Origin: a virus
Lineage: Duplodnaviria > Heunggongvirae > Uroviricota > Caudoviricetes
DNA: 64,000 nucleotides
Strand: one strand, 5' to 3'
IMG/VR virus record: IMGVR_UViG_3300036945_000242
Location: 1 to 64,000 of that record
Below the pieces are notes generated by a model, which saw only the letters and a program-made list of their open reading frames with translations, searched no databases and was not told the DNA's origin. Below are positions 3,391 through 60,427 of the stretch, piece by piece (position 1 is the stretch's first letter; the number at the start of each line of letters is the position of its first letter). A program made the translations under genes and the position numbers.

Positions 3391-4280
3391 TAAAATTCCT
3401 CTAACTCAGATAATAGTAAACGACAGCGGTTTTCAATCAAGTAATTCATGATTGACATTTTATCGCCGACAACGTTATAATTTTGGTAAGCGTCTACGAT
3501 TTTAGAACTTACTTCTACAGGTATATAGTCAAAATCAATTAACCTTACATTACGAGACCAATTACGTCGTTCTTCGTCATTAGCACAAGCTTCAAAACCC
3601 TTCTCCATAAACTCAGCTAAGCGTTTAGCGGTAACGGGTTTTTGACGCTCGCCCTTTACAAATACATCATCCGCTGACAAGATATTAGGAATACCGTCAT
3701 CCCCCGCCTTTACCACGTGAGTAATGTACTTTTCGTGTAACTGGGCTTTGTTAGCTGTTAAGCGTTTCTTCATATAGGGCGAGTACTGATCAACGTTCGA
3801 GAACTTTTGTAATTGAATAAAGTCAGCGTCCGAAGATAAGATAATAACCTTTTGCGGTTCAGATTCTAAACCAACTTGGATTAAATTGTTATCTTGTGAC
3901 CACTTAGCTAATACCGCAATCACATCATCCGCTTCGGCTTCGTTAATGTGAATAACCTTATAAGGAAAGTGTTTTTGTAAATCATCACGAATCTCCGATA
4001 GCGTATCAAAGATAAGTTTCCAATTTAAATCAGACTGTTCTCTGGACTTTTTACGCCCAGCCTTATAGTGTTCAAACACTTCTTTACGCCAGTATTTTCT
4101 ACCGTCGCAACAAATAACCAATTCACCGTATTCTTTACCGTATTTTTTCTTATACGCTTTTAGAGTTGATAAAATTGAGTGACGGATAAGGTTCTTAACC
4201 TCACTCTCCGTACCTTGTAATTCTCGTTTGAAAGAAAGTATAGACGCCAAGGCTACTTGGCTATAATCTGCTAATATCAT
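3390..4280 (-). CDS. rnh: RNase H / 5'-3' flap exonuclease
   Basis: Matches remembered T4 RNase H (DYSQVALASIL vs DFSQIALSTAL; EADDVIAVL vs EADDHIAVL). Size 296 aa vs 305 aa. Confidence 0.8.
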   Translation of the reverse strand: MILADYSQVALASILSFKRELQGTESEVKNLIRHSILSTLKAYKKKYGKEYGELVICCDGRKYWRKEVFEHYKAGRKKSREQSDLNWKLIFDTLSEIRDDLQKHFPYKVIHINEAEADDVIAVLAKWSQDNNLIQVGLESEPQKVIILSSDADFIQLQKFSNVDQYSPYMKKRLTANKAQLHEKYITHVVKAGDDGIPNILSADDVFVKGERQKPVTAKRLAEFMEKGFEACANDEERRNWSRNVRLIDFDYIPVEVSSKIVDAYQNYNVVGDKMSIMNYLIENRCRLLLSELEEF

Positions 4281-7960: not shown

Positions 7961-8003
7961 ATAATATACCCTTAGATACTTTTCGTCCCCATATAAGAAT
8001 TAT

Positions 8004-8035
8004 ACCCTAAACTTAGTTGTAAGTAAAGGGTATTT
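8004..8035 (-). promoter_or_regulatory. Early promoter cassette, identical copy of 41226-41257
   Basis: Minus strand CCTTTACTTACAACTAAGTTTAGGGTATAAT. The 32-mer is identical at the two loci. Confidence 0.5.
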
Positions 8036-9732: not shown

Positions 9733-11658
9733 TTATAAGGTTACTTCACAAGCACCGCCTGCGCAAGCTACTTGGTCGTTTAAATTGGTATTGTCTTCTA
9801 ACTCAAGAACTAAGTCTAAGTTAATATCGTGTAAATGGGTAAGCATTGATTCAAATACTTCTTTAGTACAGTCCTCAAACGGGGCTTGTACGTAAGTACC
9901 GTTATCATAAGGAAGTACAGAAATACCCGTATATGAATCACGGTTATCCCACATCCACTCACCCACAGTTTCCCACTCGGTATCTCTTACGGAAATTGTA
10001 CAAGATACGTTATGGTGGTTTGAACCTGAGCGATACCCGTTATGAACCCAATCAATATTAAAACGTTTAACCCTTTCTAATAGGCTTAAGGCTGGCTCGG
10101 TACGTAAAATTGAACCAATAGGAGCAGCTTGAGGGAAACTCATTACCGCTTCTAGATGAGGCTTAAATTTACAATCTTCAATAAGGCTTGGGAAATTGTC
10201 GTTCATATATTTGAAGAGCGGTTCGTTTTTACCGACACGCATTCTACGAATATAATAATCGTTATGCCAAGCATGGATACCTGAAGCTGAACCTACCGTC
10301 AAGGAAGAAGTACCAGAAGGCTTAATACAAGTAGTACGAACCGCTGGGTTGATACCGATTAAGGCTGCAACTCTAGCATTTTCTTCTTTAACAATTTCAG
10401 CAGCTTGAACTAAATCAAACGGTAATACCTTACCTGAACCAATACCCGTTAAACCAACACCAATCAAAGCGTCTTCTTCCGTATTTTCACGCCATTGTGG
10501 ACGTAAATAATGGAAGTTAGTATAACCCGCTTGTAAAGTACCTAAGAACGATGCAGCTTTAACTCTAGCATTTAAATCTTCTTGACTCTTAACGTCATCA
10601 ACGTTGGTTTCAGTCAAGTTACAAAACTGCATATTCTTAAGCGAAATTTCACAACAAGGGTTAGTACCAATATCGTAGTCGTTAGTCCAGAAGAATCCTG
10701 GCTCGCCAGAACCTGAATCTTTCACTCGTTGCCAAATATCTTTGAACTGGTCTTCGCTAACTACACCACGCTTTAATACTACTGAGTTATTGGCACGACC
10801 ACGTTGTGGGTTTAATTCCCACCAAGCACCCGATTTACAACCCAACATATCCATATCTTCAATACTGAATAAGGAGATTAAAGCCGCACGTCTAATACCG
10901 CCCGATAAAACAGCGTCCGCTACGTGACACATGATATCGTGGGCTTCTAGTGAACTCAACTTACGACCTACCGAATTATTCAATACCGCACGAATGTGGT
11001 CAAGACAAATACGCAACGGGTCAGGTCCAGGAGCTTTACCACCGCTGGTAATAAGGCGTGAACCTTTTTGTCGAATATCACGGAAGTCAAACTCAGGGTC
11101 AGATTTACCTTCAAAATAGGCACGTACCAAAATACGAACCGCATCAGCCCAACCCTCAATAGAATCGCCTACTAGGTAACGTCTAGAGCGTTTAATAGGT
11201 CCAACCACTAAAGGAAGCTTATCTACGTGAGGTTTCTGAACTGAAAAACCAACGCCTGAACCGCCTAGTAAAAGGAACATAGCTTCCCAAAAAGCCGCAG
11301 GATTATCTACCGCTACGTAAGCGCAGTTAAACATTCGGTTATTGGCTAACTCAATAGGGCGACCACCGAATTGCATAGAACGCATAGACGGTAATACTTT
11401 TTTAGTCTTAACGAAGTCGGTGTATAATTGTTTAATTTCTTTTTCTAGATGCGGGTATTTTAAAATATGCATACTAGCGTTACGGTCACACAAATCGTCC
11501 CAGTTTTCTCTACGGTTTAATTCTGGGATAAATTTAGCATACTTATTGAATACGGTAATATTAGATAAAATTCTTTGCGATACATCCATTTTTATTTTAG
11601 CTTTCTTGTTTGTTAATGTTGTTGATAATAGGAAATAACTTTGCGATAACCTTAGCAC
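9733..11658 (-). CDS. ribonucleotide reductase catalytic subunit, probably class II (adenosylcobalamin-dependent)
   Basis: Finger-loop motif TNPCCEISL, C-terminal redox Cys pair (ACAGGACE), about 620 aa with no ATP-cone. Likely start M24 near 11589. Confidence 0.65.
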   Translation of the reverse strand: MLRLSQSYFLLSTTLTNKKAKIKMDVSQRILSNITVFNKYAKFIPELNRRENWDDLCDRNASMHILKYPHLEKEIKQLYTDFVKTKKVLPSMRSMQFGGRPIELANNRMFNCAYVAVDNPAAFWEAMFLLLGGSGVGFSVQKPHVDKLPLVVGPIKRSRRYLVGDSIEGWADAVRILVRAYFEGKSDPEFDFRDIRQKGSRLITSGGKAPGPDPLRICLDHIRAVLNNSVGRKLSSLEAHDIMCHVADAVLSGGIRRAALISLFSIEDMDMLGCKSGAWWELNPQRGRANNSVVLKRGVVSEDQFKDIWQRVKDSGSGEPGFFWTNDYDIGTNPCCEISLKNMQFCNLTETNVDDVKSQEDLNARVKAASFLGTLQAGYTNFHYLRPQWRENTEEDALIGVGLTGIGSGKVLPFDLVQAAEIVKEENARVAALIGINPAVRTTCIKPSGTSSLTVGSASGIHAWHNDYYIRRMRVGKNEPLFKYMNDNFPSLIEDCKFKPHLEAVMSFPQAAPIGSILRTEPALSLLERVKRFNIDWVHNGYRSGSNHHNVSCTISVRDTEWETVGEWMWDNRDSYTGISVLPYDNGTYVQAPFEDCTKEVFESMLTHLHDINLDLVLELEDNTNLNDQVACAGGACEVTL

Positions 11659-12287: not shown

Positions 12288-13331
12288 TTAACATTTCCGC
12301 CAAGTGGCGAATTTCAATTTAGCTTCTATTCCTGTAAAGGTATTCGTATTTATAAGGTTTATAATCTCATCTGACGTATAACCTAATAATATTAAATCGT
12401 TAATATCCTTAGCATCAACGCTATCCGGAAACATACAAACTTTATAATCCGAGTCAATATATTTCTTTAACTGTTTTACAATATCCTTATTTCTAGGCTC
12501 ATTATCCATAACCAATGTACAATTAGCTTTTAAGCTCCTAATTATAGGGGTATCAAAACTAGCACCCGAAACCGCAATAGCGTTAGGTAAAAATAACGAA
12601 TCAATTGGTCCTTCAACTACATAAATTGGTTTAGCGTAGTTTACTATATCTAAACCGTAAATCTTTTCTTGTACGTCGTCAATCTTTACAGTAAGATACT
12701 TAGGCGTTTCATCCCCATACGCTCTACCCTGATAGGCGAATACCTTACCGTGATTATTATAAAAGGGAATAATCATCCTAGGGTGTTCAAATTGAATCGG
12801 CTCAGGAAAGGTTTTTTTACCCGTCGACCAATTTACATAAGCCTTAAACTTAGGCGCAAAATACAACCGACCCCAAGCACTCTTAGGTATTTTACGCTTC
12901 TCTACGTACTTAACCGCAGGGTGCGTTGGGGGTAGCTCCGCTATACATACTAAAGGGTCTAGTAAGTCATCGCTAAGTTCTACTTCAACAGGGGGAGTTT
13001 CTACCGTTGTGGGTTCGGTAGTTGGGGTGATGTGGAGTACGTTGCTTTTATACTTCTCAAAAACGTATTCCTTATACAAATAAGAATCTAAATGTTTGAT
13101 TAAGTTTCCAAGATTATTAACGTATCCGCAGTTGTGACATTTAACAAAAAGGTCGCCATTTGACTTATAGATAAAAGCCCTAGCTTTGGTTTTATTAGTA
13201 GAACTATCCCCGCAAATTGGGCAAGAAAAGTTCCACAAATAATCATTTTTTTGCTTAAAGTTTCTAAGCCTATTCGCTATCATACTAACGAATTTCAAAT
13301 CTATATGCATCATATAAAGCCTTAACCTCAA
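12288..13331 (-). CDS. 61: DNA primase gp61-like
   Basis: N-terminal zinc ribbon CPICGD...CHNCGY plus Toprim motif VVEGPIDSLFL. Likely real start MMHIDLKF near 13313 downstream of the promoter. Confidence 0.7.
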   Translation of the reverse strand: MRLRLYMMHIDLKFVSMIANRLRNFKQKNDYLWNFSCPICGDSSTNKTKARAFIYKSNGDLFVKCHNCGYVNNLGNLIKHLDSYLYKEYVFEKYKSNVLHITPTTEPTTVETPPVEVELSDDLLDPLVCIAELPPTHPAVKYVEKRKIPKSAWGRLYFAPKFKAYVNWSTGKKTFPEPIQFEHPRMIIPFYNNHGKVFAYQGRAYGDETPKYLTVKIDDVQEKIYGLDIVNYAKPIYVVEGPIDSLFLPNAIAVSGASFDTPIIRSLKANCTLVMDNEPRNKDIVKQLKKYIDSDYKVCMFPDSVDAKDINDLILLGYTSDEIINLINTNTFTGIEAKLKFATWRKC

Positions 13332-13362
13332 GTAGTTATAACACTTATTATAGCGTAAGGAT

Positions 13363-13380
13363 AGCTGTAAGTAAAGTATT
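13363..13380 (-). promoter_or_regulatory. Early promoter for primase (minus)
   Basis: Minus strand TTTACT-TACAGCTATCCTTACGC-TATAAT upstream of ATGATG. Confidence 0.5.
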
Positions 13381-13408
13381 ATATTTCGTAAAGATTAGGT
13401 AAAGTCGC

Positions 13409-13437
13409 TTGACTTACAAGGCGTACCTTAGTATAAT
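13409..13437 (+). promoter_or_regulatory. Consensus sigma70 promoter on plus strand (TTGACT-17-TATAAT)
   Basis: TTGACT at 13409-13414, 17-nt spacer, TATAAT at 13432-13437. Oriented against all neighbouring genes. Confidence 0.45.
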
Positions 13438-13444
13438 ACCTTTA

Positions 13445-13560
13445 GGTTCTGACTTAACGTTAGTTAAGGCACTGCGTAGCAGTATCTAAGTGAATGTATT
13501 AAACGTATGTATAACAAAACTAAGTCTGTGAGCCTTTGGCTCACCTGCCCGTAGGGCAGT
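13445..13560 (+). ncRNA. candidate structured small RNA / antisense transcript
   Basis: Downstream of the plus promoter. Conserved hairpins CTTAAC-gtta-GTTAAG, CTGC-gta-GCAG, GTGAGCC-ttt-GGCTCAC, CTGCCC-gta-GGGCAG. Duplicated at 48021-48140 with a loop substitution in hairpin 1. Confidence 0.25.
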
Positions 13561-13576
13561 AAGTAAGTGTATAGGG

Positions 13577-14050
13577 TTAGTTGAATAGCTTTGAGAAAGT
13601 GTTAAGGTTACTGAAAAGGAATAGTATAACTGCTACTCCGCCCAGAATATACCAACGCCAAACTTCCAATACGGTAACTCTAGCGTCTAGGGCTTTAAAG
13701 CTATCTTTGTTAGATTTTTCAATATTAAGTATATCGTTCTTAATTTCATTTTGTATTTCTTTGTGTTGCTCTCGAGAAGCTACTGAATTCTCAGCCATTT
13801 TAATTTCAATACCCATTTCCATATCATCTATTTTAGATAATATTTCTTTAGTCTGGGTAGCAATACGAGCATTGATATCTTTTACATCGTCAGTACGTAT
13901 ATCACTTTCTTTTACCAATTGAGTAATTTTAGCGTCATGTACTGCTAACAACTTTCCAATATCGTCGCTCACTTGGGATATCTTTTCCAGTGATTGGTCT
14001 AATTTATTAACTACGCTTTTTAATACTTCTACTTCTGTCTCGAGTGCCAT
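13577..14050 (-). CDS. coiled-coil protein with C-terminal TM anchor
   Basis: 157 aa, heptad-rich, C-terminal hydrophobic helix. Confidence 0.35.
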   Translation of the reverse strand: MALETEVEVLKSVVNKLDQSLEKISQVSDDIGKLLAVHDAKITQLVKESDIRTDDVKDINARIATQTKEILSKIDDMEMGIEIKMAENSVASREQHKEIQNEIKNDILNIEKSNKDSFKALDARVTVLEVWRWYILGGVAVILFLFSNLNTFSKLFN

Positions 14051-14063
14051 TGTATTTTCTCTC

Positions 14064-14657
14064 TTATTGTTCTTGTATTTCTTTTTGAGTTCTATACCAC
14101 TCCTGCCACTGCATAACCAAATCCCTTAACTCGTAGTAGGTTAAGTAATTTTGGGTTATAACGTCTAGGGCTTCACTTGCTTTAACATCGGAGGCGGTTT
14201 CAGCATCTGGGATGGTACTTGGGGGAATGATTGCTTGACTGGCACTGTCGTGGAGCACGACGAAAGAATTAGACAACTCGCAAGTAGCGTTGATAGCGTC
14301 AGTGTTTTTAACGACTGCTTTAGTAGTTTCATTTCGTTTTTCCTTAATGATTTGCTTTTGTATAACTATCTTTTCAACGATTTTAACGTTAGCTTCCTTA
14401 GAGGCTTCTTCCTTTTTAGCTACTACCGTTTCGGCTTCTTTGACTTTAGTTTCCCAACGGGTTTGGTTTTCTACCCCGCCCATTAAATAACAACAAGAAG
14501 CTATTACCGCAATACCCACTACTTCTAACCCTAGGTTTACAAGAGTGTAAGGGAATATGGCGAACGAAGGGAAAAATCTAGCGTATAAGAATAACGCTAA
14601 CCCGCTAACTGCTATAACGTATATACTCCAAACTGGTAAAAAATCTAATAGAAACAT
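14064..14657 (-). CDS. membrane protein (multi-TM N-terminus plus coiled coil)
   Basis: 197 aa. Two or three TM helices then a K/E-rich helix. Confidence 0.35.
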   Translation of the reverse strand: MFLLDFLPVWSIYVIAVSGLALFLYARFFPSFAIFPYTLVNLGLEVVGIAVIASCCYLMGGVENQTRWETKVKEAETVVAKKEEASKEANVKIVEKIVIQKQIIKEKRNETTKAVVKNTDAINATCELSNSFVVLHDSASQAIIPPSTIPDAETASDVKASEALDVITQNYLTYYELRDLVMQWQEWYRTQKEIQEQ

Positions 14658-14671
14658 TTTATATTATCCCT

Positions 14672-15229
14672 TTATTTTGTAGGCGGTGAGCCTACGATTA
14701 GTTTTGGAGCAGACCTACGAGCCAAGCTACGATATTTTTTAATATCTTTTTTACCAATCTTTGGTTCCAACACCGAAGCTCCGGATACGTTATTGGTTGG
14801 TGCTCCGCCAACCGCCCCTTCCCCTTCCTCAGAGAAGAAGTCAATTAACACTTTATACTCCGGATATGTTGTAATATCTTGTTCAGTTATCATAGACTGA
14901 AAATCTTGAAAATTACTTTCCATTAACGGTATAGCGGTATCGTCTGAGTTATTATACGCTTCACGTACCAATACCATTGCAGCAACCATATTACGTAACT
15001 TAGCGTCTTCGCCAGGAAGTTTATTTATAATACGCTTCATATTAAACACAAGACGCACTAGGTAGTTATAAGCGTCCTTTTCGGCTGGGGATCTTAACGT
15101 AGATGCTTTACGTAATACTTTACCCTTATCGTCCACGATTCCGTGTTTAAACGCATCCGATTCTCCGAAAGGCGTAACTAGAAGCTTTAAAATTCTTAAA
15201 GCAATAGCGTTATCTACTAATGCGCTCAT
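14672..15229 (-). CDS. hypothetical protein
   Basis: 185-aa ORF in a tight array. Confidence 0.35.
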   Translation of the reverse strand: MSALVDNAIALRILKLLVTPFGESDAFKHGIVDDKGKVLRKASTLRSPAEKDAYNYLVRLVFNMKRIINKLPGEDAKLRNMVAAMVLVREAYNNSDDTAIPLMESNFQDFQSMITEQDITTYPEYKVLIDFFSEEGEGAVGGAPTNNVSGASVLEPKIGKKDIKKYRSLARRSAPKLIVGSPPTK

Positions 15230-15603
15230 ATTTTTCTCAACCTATCTATAATGTTTTGGTCTAAAGGTATTTCTGAAGCTACTATTGAATAGTTCGGAAC
15301 CGTTTCGGGCATTCTTTCTAGGTAAGTTAAGAATGTAATTAACATTGGCCAATACTCTTCATCTATTTTGAAGAATAACATATTAGTGGCAGCTTCATTA
15401 AATAAATTATATATTATGATAATATGATTTAATATTAAACGTTCCTTCAATTCATTATCCCTAGAATACCTAGAGAGTAACTTCTTTAAATATAAAAATT
15501 TCTTTAAATCTTGGTCGAATTCCTCGACAGTTTGACATTGTGGGTTGTCGTAGTGCTTCATAGCATACAACATGAAATTGGAGTCGTTTAATCTTTCTTG
15601 CAT
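15226..15603 (-). CDS. hypothetical protein
   Basis: 125-aa ORF. Confidence 0.3.
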   Translation of the reverse strand: MQERLNDSNFMLYAMKHYDNPQCQTVEEFDQDLKKFLYLKKLLSRYSRDNELKERLILNHIIIIYNLFNEAATNMLFFKIDEEYWPMLITFLTYLERMPETVPNYSIVASEIPLDQNIIDRLRKI

Positions 15604-15641
15604 TATTTATTTATATGGGGCTTATTCAGCCCCATTTTTAA

Positions 15642-16208
15642 TTATGCTTCAGCGTCTGGTAATACAGCGTCGTCAGAACGGTCGCCAGTAGTTTCGGGAA
15701 CTAATGCGGTATTAGCCCCTTGCATAGCCACTAAACACTCGGCTTGGTGTTGAACTGAGCCGTCAGCGTTAGTCCAAGTTTTATATGACCACCATCCTGG
15801 ACACTTAATACCTTTAGCTCTAGTGGTAGAGATTGTAGCTTCCACCGAGTCCACAAAGTAGATATTAGCGGGGGAGTGTTGTAGGGTGTGAGCCACGCCT
15901 ACCCCAACCGCTGTAATATCAATAGCCGTACCCGCTAAAGCGTTAGCTTCAGAGGTGGCTAATTTGAGTACGAATGAATCAATACGGATAGCGTAGTAAA
16001 GCGTACCTGTAGTTAAACCAGCAATAGCCGTTCCACCACCTGCGCTGTAATATACTGGCATGCCAGTAGTATAACCGTGACCATCGGCGATAGTAATAGT
16101 ATTAGCCGTAACGCCTACAACTGCAGTTGAAGCTCCGCTAAAAATATTGATTCTTGTATTATTTTTTGGTGCTGATGCTAAAGCGTCAGTAATTCCCCAT
16201 AAACTCAT
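15642..16208 (-). CDS. hypothetical Gly/Ala/Thr-rich protein
   Basis: 188 aa, low-complexity beta-rich composition. Confidence 0.3.
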   Translation of the reverse strand: MSLWGITDALASAPKNNTRINIFSGASTAVVGVTANTITIADGHGYTTGMPVYYSAGGGTAIAGLTTGTLYYAIRIDSFVLKLATSEANALAGTAIDITAVGVGVAHTLQHSPANIYFVDSVEATISTTRAKGIKCPGWWSYKTWTNADGSVQHQAECLVAMQGANTALVPETTGDRSDDAVLPDAEA

Positions 16209-19194: not shown

Positions 19195-19696
19195 ATTCCC
19201 TCATCTTAGTACCCGATACGCCTGAAGTATCATCAGCGTCCGGATCCCTATCGCCAGCTGAGTGTACGGTAATTTTATTGAAGTTATAGCTACCGTGTTT
19301 CCCTGGAACTCCGTTATATTTATGTAACAACTCACTCATAGTCCCCACCCTATCTGACCCCGCTATAACGTGGAGGTGGGTTATCCCGCTATCCGACATA
19401 TCCGAAGCGTGGTGTAAGATGGTGGGACTCGCCTTAGAGGAAGCTTTGATGTTAGTTCCTGGAAATGCCGCTTTAGCGAACTTAACTTTATCCTCGGGGG
19501 ATAAGGGGTTTTTCTTAGCGTCGTGGGAATGAGATAAAACCACTACGTGATCAGCGTTGTGTTTAGCTGCCACCTCGTGTACTTTATCTATTACTTTTTC
19601 GTGTCCAGCGGTGGGCGGGTTCATACGCCCATAAACTAAAACCCCGTGAGTATCGGGCTTGGCCGATTCGATTAGGTATTGAAAGAACGATTTCAT
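19079..19696 (-). CDS. nucleotidyltransferase, NMN/NaMN adenylyltransferase-like (cytidylyltransferase fold)
   Basis: H/TxGH motif YGRMNPPTAGH and C-terminal SGTKMRE (ISSTxIR-like). 205 aa. Confidence 0.5.
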   Translation of the reverse strand: MKSFFQYLIESAKPDTHGVLVYGRMNPPTAGHEKVIDKVHEVAAKHNADHVVVLSHSHDAKKNPLSPEDKVKFAKAAFPGTNIKASSKASPTILHHASDMSDSGITHLHVIAGSDRVGTMSELLHKYNGVPGKHGSYNFNKITVHSAGDRDPDADDTSGVSGTKMREYAASGDKENFHANLPSKMPERHRTALFHTLRKSMGHEE

Positions 19697-20886: not shown

Positions 20887-22423
20887 TTACGTTTTCTCTG
20901 ATTAGGGTTGTTATATATCTAACTTGCTCAGTCGTTAAGCGTCTATTTCGAGTTTGCTCTAGATTGAGTGAAGATTGGTTAGCGGTAGGTATAGGGGTTA
21001 CTGGATTGGCTACCTTCTTTTTAGCTCTAGTCTTTTTCGGAGCATTAGGATCCTTCTTAGCTCTAGGCTTTTTCGGAGCGTCAGGATCCTTCTTAGCTCT
21101 AGGCGTTTTAATTTTAATCTCTTTACCAGAAGATACCATAGAAGACTGCGGGTCGCTTTGTGAGCTAAACTTCATATCTTGTCTAGCGATTTCGCGATGG
21201 GTATCATTTCCGTCCTTATCCTTTTCCTTTTTAGAGAAAACTACGCTACCACCTCTAGCCTCAATGTGTAATTTTTCTGGTTCTGACGTATGGTTTTCGT
21301 AATGTTTTTCCACATCTGTTATAAGGTGGTGTTTTATATTATCGCCTGAACCGTATGTTACGTGTCTATAATGTTCGTGTGTATCAGTAGATCCTGGATA
21401 TATGGGTTGATTATGCATAGGCGGATTTTTAGCACTTAACAAATGAACCAATTTAGCTTGTCTTTCTTCGTGCGTCGAATCCTCTCTATTTAAATGGTCG
21501 GCGAGGTCTTTAGCGGTCTTATGTAAAACGGTAGTATTTTTACGTTTAATGTCCGCTTTGACTTCTTCGGGTTGAGCCTTAAGCCAATCTTTTCTCTTTT
21601 CAGCCCCATGAACCTTAACTTTTCCCTTAGAGTTAGTGTAGGTCGTAGGCATCGTAGGATGAGCGTCTACAACGGATTTTCTATGAGCGATTAAATTCCC
21701 TTTAGCGTTTGGACCAGAATGTTCTATCCCAGGATTAGCTAATGGCACTTCGGGGCTATTTTTATCAGTCTTCTTTAAACTAATACCAGTAAATTTTGTA
21801 TGCTTTTTCTCATCATCTTTATGGTGAGAATGTACTACGATATCCGATGGGTCTTCATTTTGAGATGAATTGAATTTACCGCCAGTAGCACGTCCGATAT
21901 CTCCAGACTTTGAAGTCCAAACAACGTGCTTAATTACATGACCTTTGCCGTCAAAATGTTGCTTAATATCTGAGGCTGCAGATTTAGCTCTAGCCGCAGT
22001 TCTTGCGTACTCTCCAGGATGATTTTTTTCTAAGGTATCTTTAAGCTTATCGTGAGCTTCTTCGGGAGAATCACCTTCTATGTTAGGATGTTTTTCCATG
22101 TGTTTACCGCCATTAAGGTGGTAACCGACTAGAAGCTCGTGTAACTTTCCAGTTAAATCGGCTTTAGAAACCTTTTTCTTTTTCTCTTCTTCGGATTCTT
22201 CTTCTGGTTCTTCATCCGGATCTTCTTTAGATTCGTAGACGTACTTTGCTACGAGGATTTCCTCGCCATCTTCGTTCTCATCTACAATCCAATTAGTTAT
22301 ATTGTCTTGTTCTTGTTGTTCTCTCATAAGAGAGTCGATATATATACGCTCTTCTTGTTTACCGCTTAGGTACTGACTAAAGTTAATCATCATTTCCCCT
22401 ATATTCTTGTTTAACAGTTCCAC
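20879..22423 (-). CDS. His-rich protein with acidic tract and C-terminal basic tandem repeats
   Basis: 514 aa. Repeats PRAKKDP[DN]APKK near the C-terminus. No catalytic motif recognised. Confidence 0.35.
   Translation of the reverse strand: MELLNKNIGEMMINFSQYLSGKQEERIYIDSLMREQQEQDNITNWIVDENEDGEEILVAKYVYESKEDPDEEPEEESEEEKKKKVSKADLTGKLHELLVGYHLNGGKHMEKHPNIEGDSPEEAHDKLKDTLEKNHPGEYARTAARAKSAASDIKQHFDGKGHVIKHVVWTSKSGDIGRATGGKFNSSQNEDPSDIVVHSHHKDDEKKHTKFTGISLKKTDKNSPEVPLANPGIEHSGPNAKGNLIAHRKSVVDAHPTMPTTYTNSKGKVKVHGAEKRKDWLKAQPEEVKADIKRKNTTVLHKTAKDLADHLNREDSTHEERQAKLVHLLSAKNPPMHNQPIYPGSTDTHEHYRHVTYGSGDNIKHHLITDVEKHYENHTSEPEKLHIEARGGSVVFSKKEKDKDGNDTHREIARQDMKFSSQSDPQSSMVSSGKEIKIKTPRAKKDPDAPKKPRAKKDPNAPKKTRAKKKVANPVTPIPTANQSSLNLEQTRNRRLTTEQVRYITTLIRENVNA
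21000..21112. repeat. About 42-bp tandem repeat (2.5 copies) inside the CDS, encoding PRAKKDPxAPKK
   Basis: ggatccttcttagctctaggctttttcggagc repeated in tandem. Coding, not CRISPR. Confidence 0.6.
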
Positions 22424-22898: not shown

Positions 22899-22918
22899 AA
22901 ACCCGCCGAAGCGGGTTG
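22899..22918. terminator. Hairpin terminator (AACCCGC-ttcg-GCGGGTT) with T-rich flanks on both strands
   Basis: 7-bp GC-rich stem with UUCG tetraloop on minus, followed by TTTATTT. Ends the operon 22923-28008. Confidence 0.55.
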
Positions 22919-41179: not shown

Positions 41180-41225
41180 AGTTAGTTTAACAAAATTTAA
41201 GAGTTATCACTCTATACAGGTATTA

Positions 41226-41257
41226 TACCCTAAACTTAGTTGTAAGTAAAGGGTATA
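41226..41257 (-). promoter_or_regulatory. Early promoter cassette, identical copy of 8004-8035
   Basis: Minus CCTTTACTTACAACTAAGTTTAGGGTATAAT. Confidence 0.5.
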
Positions 41258-43444: not shown

Positions 43445-43480
43445 ATAGTATATTATAAACTAAAAGGCTTTGTAAGTAAA
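43445..43480 (-). promoter_or_regulatory. Early promoter (ttgtaagtaaag family)
   Basis: Minus TTTACT-TACAAAGCCTTTTAGTT-TATAAT then GGAG SD. Confidence 0.5.
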
Positions 43481-47380: not shown

Positions 47381-47892
47381 ACAAACTCCCCTAGGTCAGT
47401 TATTTGTTGAGTACGCTTTTTACGTTTAACAGCGGGAGCTTCTTGTGGAGGGTTATTTTGCATATACTCAATATAAGTATTTTGAAACACCCCGCCCTCA
47501 TCGTGTTCCTGAAGCTCAAATAAATCAAACGACATATCTTGTATTAGTTTACTTCTAATATAAGATTGTCGTTTTTCTTTGTTTATTCTACGTATAAAAG
47601 CGAAGAATATAACTTGTGTAAAATACGCAAAGGGGTTATCAGACTTATCAGGGTCAAAACTACTAATATATTGAATACAATTTTCAATACCATCGGAAAT
47701 CATTTCATCCCGATAGGAATAGTTTATAAAGTTAGGGCGATAGGAAACCCTAGTTGCTATTAAAAGAATACACTCCCCAATATAATTATTGAGGCGGGGT
47801 TTGCGTAAACCCGCTTCCTCAGCTTCTTTACACTTAAGCTTATATTCTTTTAACGCCTCCAAAAAATCTTTGTTATCTACGTAGTGTGCCAT
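47377..47892 (-). CDS. 55: late-transcription sigma factor gp55
   Basis: NPFAYFTQVIFFAFIRRINKE vs T4 gp55 [21 protein letters not shown]. Confidence 0.75.
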   Translation of the reverse strand: MAHYVDNKDFLEALKEYKLKCKEAEEAGLRKPRLNNYIGECILLIATRVSYRPNFINYSYRDEMISDGIENCIQYISSFDPDKSDNPFAYFTQVIFFAFIRRINKEKRQSYIRSKLIQDMSFDLFELQEHDEGGVFQNTYIEYMQNNPPQEAPAVKRKKRTQQITDLGEFV

Positions 47893-47984
47893 TTTAAAAC
47901 CTTTTATACTTTAATTACCTTTATTATAGTATAAAGTTTATTGTAAGTAAAGTATTATATTTCGTAAAGATTAGGTAAAGTCGC

Positions 47985-48013
47985 TTGACTTACAACCGCT
48001 ATCGCGATATAAT
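47985..48013 (+). promoter_or_regulatory. Consensus sigma70 promoter on plus strand (TTGACT-17-TATAAT)
   Basis: TTGACT 47985-47990, TATAAT 48008-48013. Confidence 0.45.
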
Positions 48014-48020
48014 ACCTTTA

Positions 48021-48140
48021 GGTTGTATTTTATGACTTAACTTTAGTTAAGGCACTGCGTAGCAGCGTTAGAAATAACTGAGTACTAGACTAATAAAAAC
48101 TAAGTCTGTGAGCCTTTGGCTCACCTGCCCGTAGGGCAGT
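48021..48140 (+). ncRNA. candidate structured small RNA / antisense transcript (copy B)
   Basis: Same four hairpins as copy A. Hairpin 1 loop is ttta instead of gtta. Confidence 0.25.
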
Positions 48141-48150
48141 AAGTGAGTGT

Positions 48151-48528
48151 CTAGTGTACTATACGGGGTTGGGTATCTGAAGGTTCTTCTTCTAAGCTTT
48201 CTTCCGTAACGTAACCTTGACTATCTACTGTGGCTGTAACCTTGGTTTCAAACGCTTTAACTAGGTTTAAGTAATGGTCAAGCAACGCTGAGTGTAAATC
48301 TTCCATTATAATAATATGATTAAAGGATATTGTATATTTCTTGGTAGCTGAATATTCACACCAAGGGTTAGCCGATACGGACGGAACTAAATTACCATCT
48401 TCATCTTCCGTATGAAATACCCTAATTAACATAGGATTAGATATTACAACGGTTTCTGAAGGTTTGTTCTCAAGGGTAGCCAATAACTCTTCACCCGTTA
48501 CTAATTTTAAAACAACATATTTATTCAA
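48151..48528 (-). CDS. hypothetical protein (UvsW.1-like position)
   Basis: 125 aa, overlaps the end of uvsW. Confidence 0.3.
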   Translation of the reverse strand: MNKYVVLKLVTGEELLATLENKPSETVVISNPMLIRVFHTEDEDGNLVPSVSANPWCEYSATKKYTISFNHIIIMEDLHSALLDHYLNLVKAFETKVTATVDSQGYVTEESLEEEPSDTQPRIVH

Positions 48529-50008
48529 GATTCACTCCTAATAGTTTAACATTAAATTGCTCTTCAGCGTATATTTTATAACGCTCCGCAGCGTGTCTAA
48601 GCGTATGGTTAGCGTTCTTTTTCCACTGTAAATCATCCGCTATATCATACAGATTACAAATAGTCTTACCGTTATTAAGCCTCAACCCACGCCCAATACT
48701 TTGTAAGTTACGAATTTTACCCTTGCTAGGCGAAGCAAATACAATATTCTCAATAGAAGGAATATTGATACCCGTTGAGAATGTGCCGAAACTAGCTACA
48801 ATAATAGCATTAGTTTCCTTTGCGCATAGTGCTCTAATTTCTTCTCGTCTAGCGGTATCTGTACCCCCGTGTACAAAGAATACTTTCCTACCGTCCTCAA
48901 CCCCCTCCTCTATCATTTTATGTAACACCTTACCGTGTTTTTCTACGAATTGGAATAACACTAAACTATTCCCCTCACACTTCAACACTAGGTCGGTAAT
49001 GTATTGGTTTCGTTTATGGTTAGTTACAACGAAGTCTAATTCGGTTTGATAGTCCGACTTATTCATTTCTTTACGAATAGCTTCGGGGTACTTTAAAACA
49101 ACGCAAGTGATAGCTAATTGGGTTAAGCTACCTTGATCCATTAGTTTCTTAGTTGTGGTAACACGGTGTATTGGTCCAAAAATACCTTCCAAAACTAGCT
49201 GATGTACTTTTTTATTATCTAAAGTACCCGTTGTTCCAATACGATACTTAACGTCCGCCATTTTCTCCATAACCGAAGTCAGCGACTTAGCTTTGAACTG
49301 GTGGGCTTCGTCCCCAAATATAACGTCAAACTGGTTAAACCAAGATTTAGGTTGTAAGTAAATAGATTGCCAAGTCGTGATTAAAACGTTACTAGCGATA
49401 ACCTTAGAGAAGCCTGAATATAACTTTTGACAATGTTTATCAACGTCAAACCCGTTTACCGAGGAATACTCTCTAAAGTCAGACTGTAACTGCTCAACCA
49501 AAGACGTAGTAGGTACTATAATAATACACTTACGCTTTTTAGATAAATGCCACATCATTGTTAAGTAAATAATGAACGATTTACCAGAAGCCGTAGGCGA
49601 TAGTAATAGCACACGACTACGCTCTAAAGCGGTTTGAACCGCCTCTAGTTGATAATCCCTAATCTCAATAGGTTCCCCACGGCTGTGCGGTTTCAACTTA
49701 GTAGAAAAGGCTAAAATATCCTCAGCGGAAACTTCCGTCTTTTCTAGTATAGGCGTTACGTATTCTACCGTATCGCCATTTTCGTTGGCGAATCGCTCCA
49801 CATACGAAACTAGACCTAGGTATAACGTTTTACGGATTGGGTCGTAAAGCCGAACCTTTCCGTCCCATAACCTAGCCCTAAATTGAGGAGTGAACTTGGC
49901 TCCAGGATATTCATAAGTGAAAAAATCGCATAATTCTTTTTCCGTAGAGGGTTCAGAATATATGCGAATAAAAACTTCGTCTAATTTTTCAATATGTATT
50001 ACAGCCAT
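48521..50008 (-). CDS. uvsW: UvsW SF2 DNA helicase
   Basis: Helicase motifs LLSPTASGKS and FGDEAHQF. 495 aa. Adjacent to uvsY. Confidence 0.75.
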   Translation of the reverse strand: MAVIHIEKLDEVFIRIYSEPSTEKELCDFFTYEYPGAKFTPQFRARLWDGKVRLYDPIRKTLYLGLVSYVERFANENGDTVEYVTPILEKTEVSAEDILAFSTKLKPHSRGEPIEIRDYQLEAVQTALERSRVLLLSPTASGKSFIIYLTMMWHLSKKRKCIIIVPTTSLVEQLQSDFREYSSVNGFDVDKHCQKLYSGFSKVIASNVLITTWQSIYLQPKSWFNQFDVIFGDEAHQFKAKSLTSVMEKMADVKYRIGTTGTLDNKKVHQLVLEGIFGPIHRVTTTKKLMDQGSLTQLAITCVVLKYPEAIRKEMNKSDYQTELDFVVTNHKRNQYITDLVLKCEGNSLVLFQFVEKHGKVLHKMIEEGVEDGRKVFFVHGGTDTARREEIRALCAKETNAIIVASFGTFSTGINIPSIENIVFASPSKGKIRNLQSIGRGLRLNNGKTICNLYDIADDLQWKKNANHTLRHAAERYKIYAEEQFNVKLLGVNLE

Positions 50009-50010
50009 AA

Positions 50011-50469
50011 CTAATTACCTGCTAAAAATTGTTTCCACATAATACCGTTTTTAATATCCCAACCTCGGGATTTAATTTGGTTCATGACGGATTCTAAAAA
50101 ATATATCATTGTGTATAAGTATTCTAATCGTATTTGCATCTTGTTTAAATCTTCATCACCCGATAGAAACTCTTCCATATCGGATTTTAAAGGTTTAACG
50201 CCTTGCCACTGTTGCCAGCCTAGGGCGGTTAATTCTTCCCTAGAAAGCTCGCCCCTATAATATCTAAATTTTGTTTTTCGTAATACGCTTATATCAGCTT
50301 TTAATTTAGTAGCTTTAAGCTTTACGCCTATTAGTAGTCGGAGGTATTTGGCGTGAAGTTTAGGGGTTTCGGTTGAATGTTCCCCTAATTTATTATCGTC
50401 AATAACGCAATCGACTTCCCACATATCCTGCATTTCTTCTAAATTCATAATTTTCCTTAAACACTTCAA
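50011..50469 (-). CDS. uvsY: UvsY recombination mediator
   Basis: MNLEEMQDMWEVDCVIDDNKL vs T4 MRLEDLQEELKKDVFIDSTKL. C-terminal QIKSRGWDIK vs AIKSRGFAIK. Confidence 0.55.
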   Translation of the reverse strand: MKCLRKIMNLEEMQDMWEVDCVIDDNKLGEHSTETPKLHAKYLRLLIGVKLKATKLKADISVLRKTKFRYYRGELSREELTALGWQQWQGVKPLKSDMEEFLSGDEDLNKMQIRLEYLYTMIYFLESVMNQIKSRGWDIKNGIMWKQFLAGN

Positions 50470-50487
50470 TTACCTAATATAGCGTAT

Positions 50488-51033
50488 TTATTTAAGTTTA
50501 AAGCTAGTGTATTTGAACGTAACCTTACCGATAACGTAATTAACGTCCCTAGAGGTAGAAGTAAAGTTAATAGAAGATAGTGATATAGGAAATAAATCTA
50601 CAAAATATAAATCGGCTAAGGGCGTATTTGAAGAACTTAAAATACTTAAAACCCCGTCTGAGTAGTTGGTGATGGTTTCGGCTGCGAAACTAGAGGGGTT
50701 GTAAGATTCTCTAACAAATGTAGCGTATTGTTCCCACCCATCAGGGAAACCTAAGCCCTCTAACCAATTTAATATAGCTCGGTAGTTTTCCATTTTAGAA
50801 TCTACAATAAAATCTAATTCTAGGCTACCGTAATTAAGTTTTTCTCCTGGGATATGAATATCTACAAAAGGCGTATTCTGTGTTATATCACCTAAACCTA
50901 CGCTCGGAATACTAGCTTCTTGGCAGAAGAACTGAAGTGAGGGTAGTTTTTGAATAGAAAGCCGATACCCGTTAGGTGATAGTGGGGATAGGTTTTCGGG
51001 TATAGGGCAGGTAATAGTTCGGGGAAAGGTCAT
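50488..51033 (-). CDS. tail-tube-fold paralog (gp19/gp3-like)
   Basis: 181 aa. Pattern FFCQEASIPSVG resembles the tube protein at 57632-58189. Confidence 0.35.
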   Translation of the reverse strand: MTFPRTITCPIPENLSPLSPNGYRLSIQKLPSLQFFCQEASIPSVGLGDITQNTPFVDIHIPGEKLNYGSLELDFIVDSKMENYRAILNWLEGLGFPDGWEQYATFVRESYNPSSFAAETITNYSDGVLSILSSSNTPLADLYFVDLFPISLSSINFTSTSRDVNYVIGKVTFKYTSFKLK

Positions 51034-51046
51034 TATAATACTCCAA

Positions 51047-51069
51047 TGAAAAAGGGAGCCGAAGCTCCC
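51047..51069 (-). terminator. Hairpin (GGGAGC-ttcg-GCTCCC plus TTTTT) after the capsid gene
   Basis: Lies between a TATAAATA box and the next start codon. May act as a terminator or as a 5'UTR stabiliser. Confidence 0.45.
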
Positions 51070-51098
51070 TAAAATTTATACCGCTTCTTACGTCGGTT

Positions 51099-51106
51099 TA
51101 TTTATA
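51099..51106 (-). promoter_or_regulatory. T4-type late promoter box TATAAATA
   Basis: Exact TATAAATA on the minus strand, about 65 nt upstream of the 181-aa gene start. Confidence 0.4.
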
Positions 51107-58216: not shown

Positions 58217-60427
58217 TTAAGCGTTAAGCTCGCTGAAGGAAATACCAGAACGAGTAGCGATAAAGTTCAAAGTAATGAAGTTGATAGCACGGTTCGGTTT
58301 TACGAAAATATCAGCGATAAATTCGTTACGGTCAATAACTTCACCAGTATTGTTACTAGCATCACAACGAACCAAGAACTCAGTAATACCTCTACGACCT
58401 TGTACATCACGTAAGAACGGTTCAACCAAATTCTTAAATTGAGCACGAGTAAACGAATCGTTAAACTCGAATAATTGATACTTAGAAGCGGTAGCGATAG
58501 CTTTTTCTAATACAATAAACAATCTACGAACGTTGATACGATCAAAGGCGGAAGGTTTAGACAAGAGAGTCTTATCACCAAACAATACAGTACCTTGTCC
58601 TGGAAATGTAACCACAGGGTTTACACCGTTTTTATAGAGATTGTCTCTATCGGTTTTTCTAGGATTGTGTGATAACTTGACTACGTTCTTGATTTGACCA
58701 CGGTTTAAACCTCCTGGAGAGAACCAAGGATCGTTAGTGAAGTCGGTACGAGCACATAAACCAGCTACGTCGCCATTTAACGGAACCCAGCGGTATTTGT
58801 CGTTATAACGGTCGTATTGGTATTTGAATCCAGAGTCCATAACCGCATAAGATGTACTTGGTAATTCGTTACGGAAGGCGATGATTTGGTCGGTAGCGTC
58901 AGAACCAGAACCGATGATAATTTCGTTGCTCTCGCTTACAGGGGAAACAAATGCTACGCAATCTTTACGAGCTTCAACCACATTATTGATAATGTAGATA
59001 GCCACAGTAGAAGATACTTTACCCATAGGTAATAAGCTAATATCGTAAAGGCTGTCGTCCGCAAAAGGAGCCCAAGCGTTTTGTAAGTTACCGTCAGTAA
59101 CAGTAAAATCGTCCACACCACCAACTAAAGAACGGCTGATAGCGGTAGTTGCTGATTTAAAGGTAACGCTATTTGCTTCAGAACCCCAAGCTGTACCGCT
59201 AGTCGATAACACTGGGTGATCCATCCACCAAATATACTTAGAACGAGCGTTAAGTACGTTTTTGTAGTAGTTGTTAGTACCGTCAGATTGTCTAGCGTCA
59301 GAAGCTTTAGATACGAATGCGAACTTTTCTAAGATACTACCTCTAGTGCCAGTCCATACACCATCTTCGTCGATAACAATGATATGTAATTCGTCATTAG
59401 AACCGCCAACCGTACTCGCATACTCAGAAGTATTAGGAGCGGTATCGAATTCGTCTCTATAAGCCCATGTAGCGAAACTAGCAGAATCTGCCATAGAAAC
59501 ACGTAAAGAGTTTCCTAAAGTTCCTGGATACTTAGCAGCGAATTCGCCAATTAAGGCTGAACCGTTGATAAAGTTAGTTTCGTAGTCGTCGCTATTTTTA
59601 ATCTTAATACCAACAACAGACGAGATAGTTGCTACGGCTGTAGCTTGCGTAGAAGCTCCACCACCAGCAATCGTAACAGTTGGAGCAGTAGCGTAACCAG
59701 TTCCTGGAGTAACAATAGTAACGCCAGTAATAGTTGAAGTGCCAATAGTAATTGTGCCTGCTGCTGCATTAGATCCGCCTGAGCCAGCATTATTAAAAGT
59801 AACGGTAGGGGCTGAAGTGTAGCCTGAACCGCCATTATCTACGGTGATAGAAGTAACTTGACCTAAAGTCGGGCTTCCTACTGTAGTATCTACAACAGCT
59901 GTACCCGTAGCCGTAACGCCACCCGCTACTTGAGGTGCGCTGAACGTAATAGTTGGGGCTGAAGTGTAACCTGTACCGCCATTCGCAACAGCAACGGTTA
60001 ATACTGGAGCACCAGAACGTACAGCCGTACCAGTAGCATTAACGCCACCATCAGCGTCCGGAGCACTAAAAGTTACGGTCGGTTGGCTAGTATAGCCTGA
60101 ACCCGCTGTACTCATAGTAACACTAGCTACAGAACCAGTTAAAAGCGAAACCGCATTGCGTTGGTTTGTAGTATCGGCACGAGATACTAAAAGGCTATTA
60201 GAGTAAGCTAAGAAATTCGCTGCAGTAAAGAAAGATTGAGCGGTAGCGTCGTTCGGTTTACCGAAACGTTGTACTAATTCATTTTCAGAAGCGATAATTG
60301 TAGGATCCATAACAGGACCCCACTGAAAAGCACCAGCATAAGCACCATTAGAAGTAGAAACGGCTGGGACGATTGACGTCAAGTCCTTTTCTACAATGGC
60401 TACTCCTGGAGATAATTGAAACGGCAT
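58217..60427 (-). CDS. 18: tail sheath protein gp18 with Ig-like repeat insertion
   Basis: N-terminus LSPGV...AFQWGP (T4 has LSPGI...KFQWGP). 736 aa vs 659 aa in T4. Extra length is four ~40-aa repeats GG(S/T)GYTSAPT(V/I)TFSAP. Confidence 0.8.
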   Translation of the reverse strand: MPFQLSPGVAIVEKDLTSIVPAVSTSNGAYAGAFQWGPVMDPTIIASENELVQRFGKPNDATAQSFFTAANFLAYSNSLLVSRADTTNQRNAVSLLTGSVASVTMSTAGSGYTSQPTVTFSAPDADGGVNATGTAVRSGAPVLTVAVANGGTGYTSAPTITFSAPQVAGGVTATGTAVVDTTVGSPTLGQVTSITVDNGGSGYTSAPTVTFNNAGSGGSNAAAGTITIGTSTITGVTIVTPGTGYATAPTVTIAGGGASTQATAVATISSVVGIKIKNSDDYETNFINGSALIGEFAAKYPGTLGNSLRVSMADSASFATWAYRDEFDTAPNTSEYASTVGGSNDELHIIVIDEDGVWTGTRGSILEKFAFVSKASDARQSDGTNNYYKNVLNARSKYIWWMDHPVLSTSGTAWGSEANSVTFKSATTAISRSLVGGVDDFTVTDGNLQNAWAPFADDSLYDISLLPMGKVSSTVAIYIINNVVEARKDCVAFVSPVSESNEIIIGSGSDATDQIIAFRNELPSTSYAVMDSGFKYQYDRYNDKYRWVPLNGDVAGLCARTDFTNDPWFSPGGLNRGQIKNVVKLSHNPRKTDRDNLYKNGVNPVVTFPGQGTVLFGDKTLLSKPSAFDRINVRRLFIVLEKAIATASKYQLFEFNDSFTRAQFKNLVEPFLRDVQGRRGITEFLVRCDASNNTGEVIDRNEFIADIFVKPNRAINFITLNFIATRSGISFSELNA
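59654..60115. repeat. Four tandem ~120-bp coding repeats (Ig-like domains) inside the sheath gene
   Basis: Repeated motif GSGYTS(A/Q)PT(V/I)TFSAP...GGV(N/T)ATGTAV. Confidence 0.6.

Follow-up and report, generated by a model that had tools for sequence, protein, structure and literature searches.

The window analysed here is the stretch of 64,000 nt that covers positions 1 to 64,000 of the IMG/VR record IMGVR_UViG_3300036945_000242, from an uncultured T4-like, Kyanoviridae-like myovirus. All its called genes lie on the minus strand, hereafter the gene strand. Among GenBank phages, Melnitz, Mosig and HTVC008M come nearest, with a primase identity of 47% or less, and no DNA-level match to any of these phages in GenBank was found for the window. 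Two of its intergenic gaps are occupied by copies of one cassette of about 230 bp, which contains two back-to-back early promoters and four hairpins and is the subject of this study. Both copies (copy A, 13343-13577; copy B, 47919-48153) take up their entire gap, beginning at the upstream gene's stop codon and reaching the point where the downstream gene starts. For copy A the upstream gene encodes a DUF7201 coiled-coil protein (stop codon at 13577) and the downstream gene is that of primase. For copy B the upstream gene encodes a 125-amino-acid (aa) protein (stop codon at 48151) and comes after the genes for UvsY and UvsW, and the downstream gene is gp55; gene assignment thus confirms the location beside uvsW/uvsY given in the initial annotation of this DNA.

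The two window copies were compared by pairwise alignment together with an exact-match scan. They share four exact blocks: 13366-13419 with 47942-47995 (54 nt), 13432-13448 with 48008-48024 (17 nt), 13460-13482 with 48043-48065 (23 nt, or 33 nt if one mismatch in the loop of hairpin 1 is allowed) and 13516-13564 with 48096-48144 (49 nt, or 62 nt at 95%). Between these blocks the alignment shows no relationship in the promoter spacer, in an insertion of 7 nt or in a middle segment of about 35-45 nt. Shuffles predict 0.00 occurrences of the 32-nt hairpin blocks, which the window contains exactly twice, and covariance models detected no further copy in its 64 kb. Logan contigs of this phage end 35-42 nt beyond both stop codons, which is the expected behaviour at a true repeat. 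The cassette is duplicated, and the near-identical blocks with unrelated spacers that had been annotated are more than chance would give; the observation that the two copies of hairpin 1 differ only in the loop also holds (G versus T at 13459).

The divergent promoters

Each copy has a sense early promoter, TTTACT-N17-TATAAT, on the minus strand. In copy A it lies at 13347-13375 and feeds the primase gene, with a likely start at the ATGATG at 13313; in copy B it lies at 47923-47951 and feeds gp55, the gene of the late sigma factor, which starts at 47892. Both belong to an early-type family of about 15 copies (CTTTACTTACAA-N-TATAATA) otherwise found on the gene strand, as befits the minus-strand early promoter feeding the downstream gene that had been annotated. 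The sense promoter of copy A is kept in the relatives L172, L174 and L177. An inter-promoter block with 71% A+T, identical in both window copies (13376-13408 in copy A), separates it from an antisense early promoter, TTGACT-N17-TATAAT, on the plus strand, located at 13409-13437 in copy A (predicted start near 13444) and at 47985-48013 in copy B (predicted start near 48020). These two sites (GCTTGACTTACAA...TATAAT) are the only family-type promoters on the plus strand in the 64 kb. The predicted start sites of one copy lie about 105 bp apart, back to back.

Orthologous cassettes are present in contigs of relatives, L165-L184 on the copy A side and L185 and L186 on the copy B side. In the protein database the closer relatives show 77-99% identity for the DUF7201 neighbour and 74-82% for the primase; for the metagenomic phages that gave orthologous cassettes, the identity of the neighbouring protein is 77-96%. 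Promoter conservation was followed in seven full-length cassettes from five phage lineages. The antisense -10 element is invariant in all seven, the -35 element reads TT(G/T)ACT with five of its six positions invariant, and a TACAA extension is likewise invariant. The spacing is exactly 17 nt in every case, with all 12 central spacer positions variable, and the two -35 elements are 33 nt apart in six of the seven cassettes. About half of the first 22 transcribed plus-strand bases are invariant, five cassettes being identical there. At fourfold-degenerate sites of the DUF7201 gene the window shares only 51-70% identity with its cassette-bearing relatives; the conserved non-coding blocks therefore reflect constraint and not recency. 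As far as sequence comparison can tell, this pattern is the signature of a working promoter, and the predicted antisense promoter is under purifying selection. The inverted plus-strand promoter of the initial annotation is therefore upheld.

Ordinary early promoters of the minus strand (43452-43480, 41222-41250, 7999-8027 and 2813-2841) often pair their upstream tract with the spacer in a short stem whose loop contains the -35 element; AAAGGC-TTTACTTACA-AAGCCTTT is one example. This design resembles that of the promoter-early stem-loop (PeSL) cassettes of T4-type phages (Arbiol et al. 2010, PMC2839356; Comeau et al. 2014, PMC4122927).

Conserved hairpins and a variable middle segment

The four hairpins, all perfect palindromes, lie downstream of the antisense promoter. 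In copy A, hairpin 1 occupies 13453-13468 (extendable to 13450-13471) and hairpin 2 occupies 13472-13482; hairpins 3 (13528-13544) and 4 (13545-13559) abut directly and reach -20 kcal/mol as RNA. The corresponding positions in copy B are 48036-48051, 48055-48065, 48108-48124 and 48125-48139. The fold of hairpins 3 and 4 together has a z of -5.5 to -6. All four stems are retained in the orthologous cassettes and their loops vary freely: read in gene sense, the loop is TAAC, TTC, TAC, AAA or TAAA in hairpin 1, TAC, TAAC or TAAA in hairpin 2, AAA, GAA or TTT in hairpin 3 and TAC, AAG, GTA or TGC in hairpin 4. For hairpins 1 and 2, 99.1% of cells are paired, whereas slid controls all gave 16-34%, and three pairs are altered on both sides. 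The consensus fold adds a two-pair extension to hairpin 1, the outer pair of which is compensated in L177, and compensatory changes are found in five predicted pairs overall. The stem of hairpin 3 has 7 bp in the window and 6 bp in relatives, and hairpin 4 of L183 has an extra A-T pair within its stem; such insertions and deletions of whole pairs favour a folded nucleic acid over operators of dimeric proteins. The predicted hairpin structures are thus under selection, and covariation across related phages (paired cells, compensated pairs and whole-pair indels) bears out their annotation as structures.

Three further readings of these stems were discarded. If the palindromes were operators of a dimeric protein, the shift of the half-site spacing of hairpin 3 from 3 to 5 bp and the pair gained by an arm of hairpin 4 should disrupt binding; both are tolerable for a hairpin, and the operator reading was rejected. 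A G.U fifth pair of hairpin 2 was withdrawn as evidence for a gene-sense RNA because the same T is part of the compensated extension of hairpin 1. A long-range pairing between the AGACTTAG box and the 3' arm of hairpin 1 is not conserved in L177 or L185.

Between hairpins 2 and 3 lies a fast-evolving middle segment. That of copy A (13483-13527) ends in a semi-conserved box, AAAACTAAGTCT (13516-13527); that of copy B (48066-48107) is unrelated to it and homologous to the middle segment of L183, which is a canonical gene-sense terminator (AGGTCTAGA...TCTAGACCT followed by T7). In all variants the segment measures 40-51 nt, with 66-78% A+T (61% in the window), and is rich in T when read in gene sense. 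Within relatives, copies A and B share one middle segment together with the unusual TTT loop (L174 and L185; L175 and L186), and the two window copies hold middle segments that occur in different lineages of relatives. The motif GTCTAGTAC / TCTAGAC recurs at differing places among the variants: it forms an inverted pair around hairpins 3 and 4 in copy B (48083-48091 and 48147-48157) and a direct repeat in L177, stands just before hairpin 4 in L177 and L180, and makes up the stem of the canonical terminator in L183.

In otherwise near-identical sequences the loop of hairpin 4 is TAC in L177 and GTA in L182, and that of hairpin 3 is TTT in L174 and L185 instead of AAA. These inversions are the footprint of intrastrand template switching at DNA hairpins. 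They show that the palindromes fold as DNA during replication, which need not be their function.

Folding as DNA bears on the proposal, made in the initial annotation, that the cassette is a promoter-driven R-loop replication origin of the oriF/oriG type of T4 (Kreuzer and Brister 2010, PMC3016281). In such an origin the RNA from the plus-strand promoter would form a hybrid within the A+T-rich middle segment and so prime leading-strand synthesis, while the palindromes, which are perfect Watson-Crick triloop structures subject to loop inversion (TAC to GTA, AAA to TTT), would fold on the displaced strand. Minimal T4 origins are of about 100 bp and consist of a promoter and a sequence-free A+T-rich unwinding element, and oriE uses an early promoter (PMC3016281). 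The cassette likewise has a promoter followed by an A+T-rich segment free in sequence and held in length and composition, is present in two copies per genome as T4 origins are in several, and has one of them next to uvsY/uvsW. The T4 origins differ in depending on MotA-activated middle promoters, in having a uvsY origin transcript in the sense direction and in lacking flanking hairpins, and the same hairpins in RNA would here compete with hybrid formation. There is no melting signal in support of origin activity and no inflection of cumulative skew at either copy; the middle segment is only moderately A+T-rich, that of copy A being just within the 2% least stable DNA of the window and that of copy B not even the least stable DNA of its cassette. 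A conserved plus-strand terminator far downstream, described below, points instead to a full-length transcript. The origin proposal has thus gained no positive evidence, and we regard it as very unlikely. Equally doubtful is its most specific form, in which the antisense promoter at the uvsW-gp55 junction would be an R-loop origin promoter, a positional analogue of oriF whose DNA-folding palindromes hold the displaced strand open, with the module duplicated beside primase; if true, these would be the first defined origins for aquatic T4-like phages of this group.

Distribution of the cassette and ancestry of the antisense promoter

Exact-pattern scans for the cassette blocks (hairpin and promoter patterns) found none in IMG/VR, JGI metagenome contigs or GTDB genomes; two IMG/VR pattern hits inside a transposase-like coding sequence were set aside as chance. 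No cassette homologue was detected by blastn-short in 160 IMG/VR relatives with 57-72% protein identity, and the covariance models R1 and R2 gave no match at 80 gp55 loci (L081-L160). In distant IMG/VR relatives primase usually lies only 34-41 nt behind the upstream gene.

The antisense promoter has a wider distribution than the hairpins. Upstream of gp55, an antisense TTGNNN-N17-NATAAT is present in 40 of 57 distinct distant relatives, against 1.8 expected by shuffling. All these sites have a spacer of 17 nt and end at a distance of 26-34 nt from the stop codon upstream; a conserved box, AAC(C/G)(A/G)TGT(C/T)(G/A)GGTTTGA, which is AACCATGTCGGGTTTGA-like, comes next. Cultured phages carry the promoter too (loci L187, 2290-2490; L188, 2262-2470; L189, 2358-2486): HTVC008M has TTGACA-N17-TATAAT at gp55, cyanophage S-RIM8 has TTGACA-N17-TAGAAT and the box, and Melnitz has TTGCTT-N17-TATATT. 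No report of this promoter or of an antisense transcript at the uvsW-gp55 junction was found in the searchable literature, the library being incomplete.

At primase, the relatives L038 and L039, which have a 116-nt gap upstream of this gene, carry the gp55-type box with an antisense promoter, TTGATT-N17-CATAAT, followed by AACGGTGTTAGGGTTGATGA, and L044 and L045, with a gap of 113 nt, probably carry the same module of box and antisense promoter. Either the separate L038/L039 lineage would have placed the module at primase independently, or the module would be old and often lost. Taken together, these comparisons point to copy B as the ancestral position and copy A as a secondary copy of a module that behaves as a portable unit. 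The predicted antisense promoter is ancestral at the gp55 junction and, by the same comparison, older than the hairpins. Run SRR29748416 yielded both L169 and L165, where the DUF7201 protein is 96% identical to that of the window and the primase across the cassette 82%, a contrast that could reflect different constraint or a recombination breakpoint at the cassette.

In the distant relatives a gene-sense terminator lies between the divergent promoters, and its arms, AAGGCAAA and TTTGCCTT, supply the antisense and sense -35 hexamers, respectively; L083, L098-L100 and similar loci have this design some 60-130 nt ahead of gp55. It speaks for a reading confined to the gene strand, in which the cassette would be an enlarged terminator/promoter unit of the PeSL type and the antisense promoter a DNA device whose RNA is functionless. 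In such a unit the hairpins would attenuate or stabilise the 3' end of the upstream mRNA, with RNase E possibly cutting the U-rich linker, and the sense promoter would restart transcription; the antisense promoter would act as a roadblock to read-through or boost the sense promoter by divergent supercoiling. The fixed distance between the two -35 elements agrees with this, as do the T-rich middle segment in gene sense, the canonical gene-sense terminator of L183 and the single-sequence folds, with z of -2.8 and -3.7 in gene sense and of -1.0 and -1.8 in plus sense.

The likeness to PeSL cassettes lies in composition. Both have one or more stem-loops, an A+T-rich tract, a strong sigma70-like early promoter and a Shine-Dalgarno (SD) sequence, and both are repeated in their genome; the shared middle segments of the cassette may also be signs of exchange among copies and lineages. 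Like the intergenic composite of a PeSL, it contains a sigma70-like early promoter with an upstream A+T-rich tract and a downstream SD sequence and start codon. PeSL units are of about 100 bp and flank ORFans in hyperplastic regions, whereas the cassettes measure 230-260 bp, have four hairpins without a U-tract, and flank core genes (primase and gp55) in only two copies in 64 kb. They also have an obligatory, selected antisense promoter, and neither 'antisense' nor 'bidirectional' occurs in PMC2839356. The earlier description as PeSL-like is consequently apt for composition and not for copy number or genomic context. A gene-strand unit is also difficult to reconcile with three features: its four hairpins have no adjacent gene-sense U-tract in a phage that possesses canonical terminators, and it leaves unexplained both the conserved first 20 or so transcribed bases of the plus strand and the conserved plus-strand terminator 2.2 kb away. 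We consider this reading rather unlikely.

Termination and fate of the predicted plus-strand transcript

Both copies follow a cluster of four minus-strand genes. Behind copy A (13577-15603) these encode a DUF7207 protein, a 185-aa protein, an Rz-like spanin candidate and the DUF7201 coiled-coil protein; upstream of copy B (48151-51033) they encode a tail-tube-like protein, UvsY, UvsW and the 125-aa protein. The motif TATAAATA heads the copy A cluster at 15615-15608 and the copy B cluster at 51106, and occurs eight times on the gene strand and never on the other. The operons downstream of the cassettes, of early type, are primase-ThyX-Nrd (copy A) and gp55-AAA ATPase-gp47 (copy B). Each cassette thus probably marks the place where a putative late unit of four genes ends and an early operon begins. 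The 125-aa protein (48151-48528, minus strand) gave a sub-threshold Pfam match to Sm_like (26.8 bits versus a cut-off of 29.4) and also a match to PHROG 471, which has members with the annotation 'methylamine utilization'; it is no more than a candidate for RNA binding.

As intrinsic terminators we counted G+C-rich stems with a U-tract within about 2 nt. An adjacent U-tract is missing from all four hairpins, whichever strand is read, and they therefore fall outside this definition. The bidirectional terminator suggested in the initial annotation is accordingly not borne out in the usual sense of the term. Elsewhere the phage has canonical terminators with UUCG and a U-tract, and canonical examples in the window lie at 22900, 36440, 40178 and 51053.

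A plus-strand intrinsic terminator, ATGGGGC-TTATTCA-GCCCCAT followed by TTTTTAATT, was found at 15615-15643, with eight pairs, five of them G-C. Under a strict definition it is the only plus-only intergenic terminator in the 64 kb, its hairpin having no U-tract on the gene strand. It lies 2.2 kb downstream of the antisense promoter of copy A, in the intergenic gap on the other side of the four-gene cluster behind this copy. The terminator is kept, with different stems, in the cassette-bearing clade (L167-L171 and L182), and by the same criteria occurs in one of 38 distant relatives lacking cassette A. A plus-strand transcript of about 100-130 nt, as first predicted, is unlikely given this distal terminator and the lack of a U-tract or terminator after hairpin 4. 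A protein-coding antisense transcript was also rejected: the open reading frame (ORF) opposite the DUF7201 gene is broken at differing positions in relatives and absent at copy B. The transcript would accordingly be non-coding.

These results also weigh on the idea of a short, stable, structured small RNA (sRNA) of about 115-130 nt, present as two trans-acting paralogues with hairpins 1 and 2 as a 5' module, the variable middle as a targeting region and hairpins 3 and 4 as a 3' module. The conserved promoter, the four covarying hairpins and the variable middle of constant length would suit such a molecule, the tandem 3' hairpins could stop 3' exonucleases at -20 kcal/mol, and L185 has one U.G pair in plus sense. 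A bacterial-type sRNA gene needs a promoter of its own and, within a few hundred nt, a defined 3' end, and here the 3' end is missing, with neither terminator nor U-tail after hairpin 4. Within the window the middle segments show complementarity no better than chance (at most 13 nt), which lends no support to a guide or seed function, and a middle segment shared by the two copies of a relative is not a per-copy guide. In Rfam 15 only tRNAs reach the gathering threshold, the best permissive hits having an E value of at least 0.29, far below threshold; no Rfam family matches the cassette. Finally, the ancestral antisense promoter of distant relatives has no hairpins behind it. We therefore judge the sRNA explanation improbable.

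A proposed boundary cassette with an antisense RNA

The interpretation that we prefer, and hold tentatively, is that of a boundary cassette, the backward early promoter of which may make a long non-coding antisense RNA with a structured leader, which would oppose the adjacent cluster early in infection. The sense promoter would express primase-ThyX-Nrd from copy A or gp55-AAA ATPase-gp47 from copy B. The plus-strand promoter would launch a non-coding RNA with a leader of about 115 nt containing the four hairpins, which would then run antisense across the preceding four-gene cluster, ending at the 15615-15643 terminator in copy A (about 2.2 kb) and extending in copy B for up to about 3 kb, to the hairpin at 51053-51070. 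Because the promoter is of the early class, this RNA would be made early; it would oppose the spanin-like and DUF7201 genes, or UvsW and UvsY, until the early promoters are shut off, by polymerase collision, by RNA duplex formation or by both. As the hairpins are palindromic, they would also be present at the 3' end of the sense mRNA of the cluster, where they could attenuate read-through or block 3' exonucleases.

Several observations weigh against this interpretation. We infer from sequence that the promoters fire, to which temporal class each flanking gene belongs, what regulatory effect results and what the hairpins do; the TATAAATA motif is the sole basis of the late-unit assignment, and at 15615 it is separated from the start codon by just 12 nt. 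Rho would normally act on an RNA that is untranslated over 2-3 kb. For copy B a clean plus-strand terminator is lacking: the strong hairpin met first is the gene-sense terminator at 51053-51070, and at the ancestral gp55 locus no antisense-oriented terminator was found within 4 kb in 43 loci. Many distant relatives without cassette A hold a G+C-rich hairpin without an adjacent U-tract in the gap equivalent to that at 15615, so the co-occurrence of terminator and cassette is suggestive only. Distant relatives also have the antisense promoter without the hairpins, and the model gives these no necessary role. As to the strand on which the hairpins act, the initial annotation assigned them to a plus-strand RNA; their structure stands, but the strand is not identified by the consensus energies, which are nearly equal (-25.5 kcal/mol in plus sense and -25.2 kcal/mol in gene sense), and the lone strand-specific event is in hairpin 4 of L185, a U.G pair in plus sense and a C.A mismatch in gene sense.

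Antisense transcription of this kind would have company among related phages. The classical 'anti-late' RNA of T4 is made early, opposite late genes. A cis-antisense RNA, CfrI of cyanophage S-PM2, is cited in PMC5931967. As predicted here, the transcript would share with both that it is non-coding and lies opposite protein-coding genes of a T4-like phage; it would differ in that its promoter is duplicated with a structured leader and, at copy A, a dedicated terminator, and in that the antisense promoter is positionally conserved at the uvsW-gp55 junction across many Kyanoviridae, the transcript itself being only predicted.

A leader of tandem hairpins also recalls antitermination. The put RNAs of phage HK022 are likewise two per genome and located just downstream of an early promoter, with tandem stem-loops of conserved stems; cis-acting antitermination of this kind would help an untranslated RNA to escape Rho. 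They have no sequence or Rfam relation to the cassette. A processive antiterminator would, moreover, ignore the conserved distal terminator, and the hairpins are absent in those distant relatives that keep the antisense promoter.

The finding joins two known kinds of element, composite promoter/terminator cassettes and cis-antisense transcription in phages. What is understood of transcription in Kyanoviridae, T4-like phages of marine and fresh waters, comes mostly from analogy with T4, and with nearly all genes co-oriented it is a question how late or harmful genes stay silent early. The selected, positionally conserved antisense early promoter at uvsW-gp55, present in genomes of a cultured cyanophage and cultured pelagiphages, and its elaboration in this clade into a duplicated cassette with a distal terminator of its own are together a testable candidate for temporal insulation. 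They would also add a bidirectional form to the portable promoter/terminator modules of the PeSL concept. Infections with S-RIM8, HTVC008M or Melnitz are where the predicted transcripts can be sought.

Additional features of the window

Eight tRNA genes (Arg, Met, Ser, Glu, Pro, Met, Trp and Thr) are clustered at 28-2339 on the minus strand. Two sets of repeats lie within called ORFs and are probably repetitive protein segments: a tandem 36-nt repeat at 21017-21088, in two copies with 89% identity, and a 41-nt unit present four times at 59670-60109, spaced 126/147 nt apart. An apparent 501-nt ORF-free, strongly folding gap at 19195-19695, within the only stretch that has positive GC skew, was rejected as such, being coding for a nucleotidyltransferase-like ORF in another frame. 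In L177, an 85% relative, the gene behind ThyX (3761-4246) has an intein-splicing domain (PF14890); its homologue in the window lies at 9733-11658.

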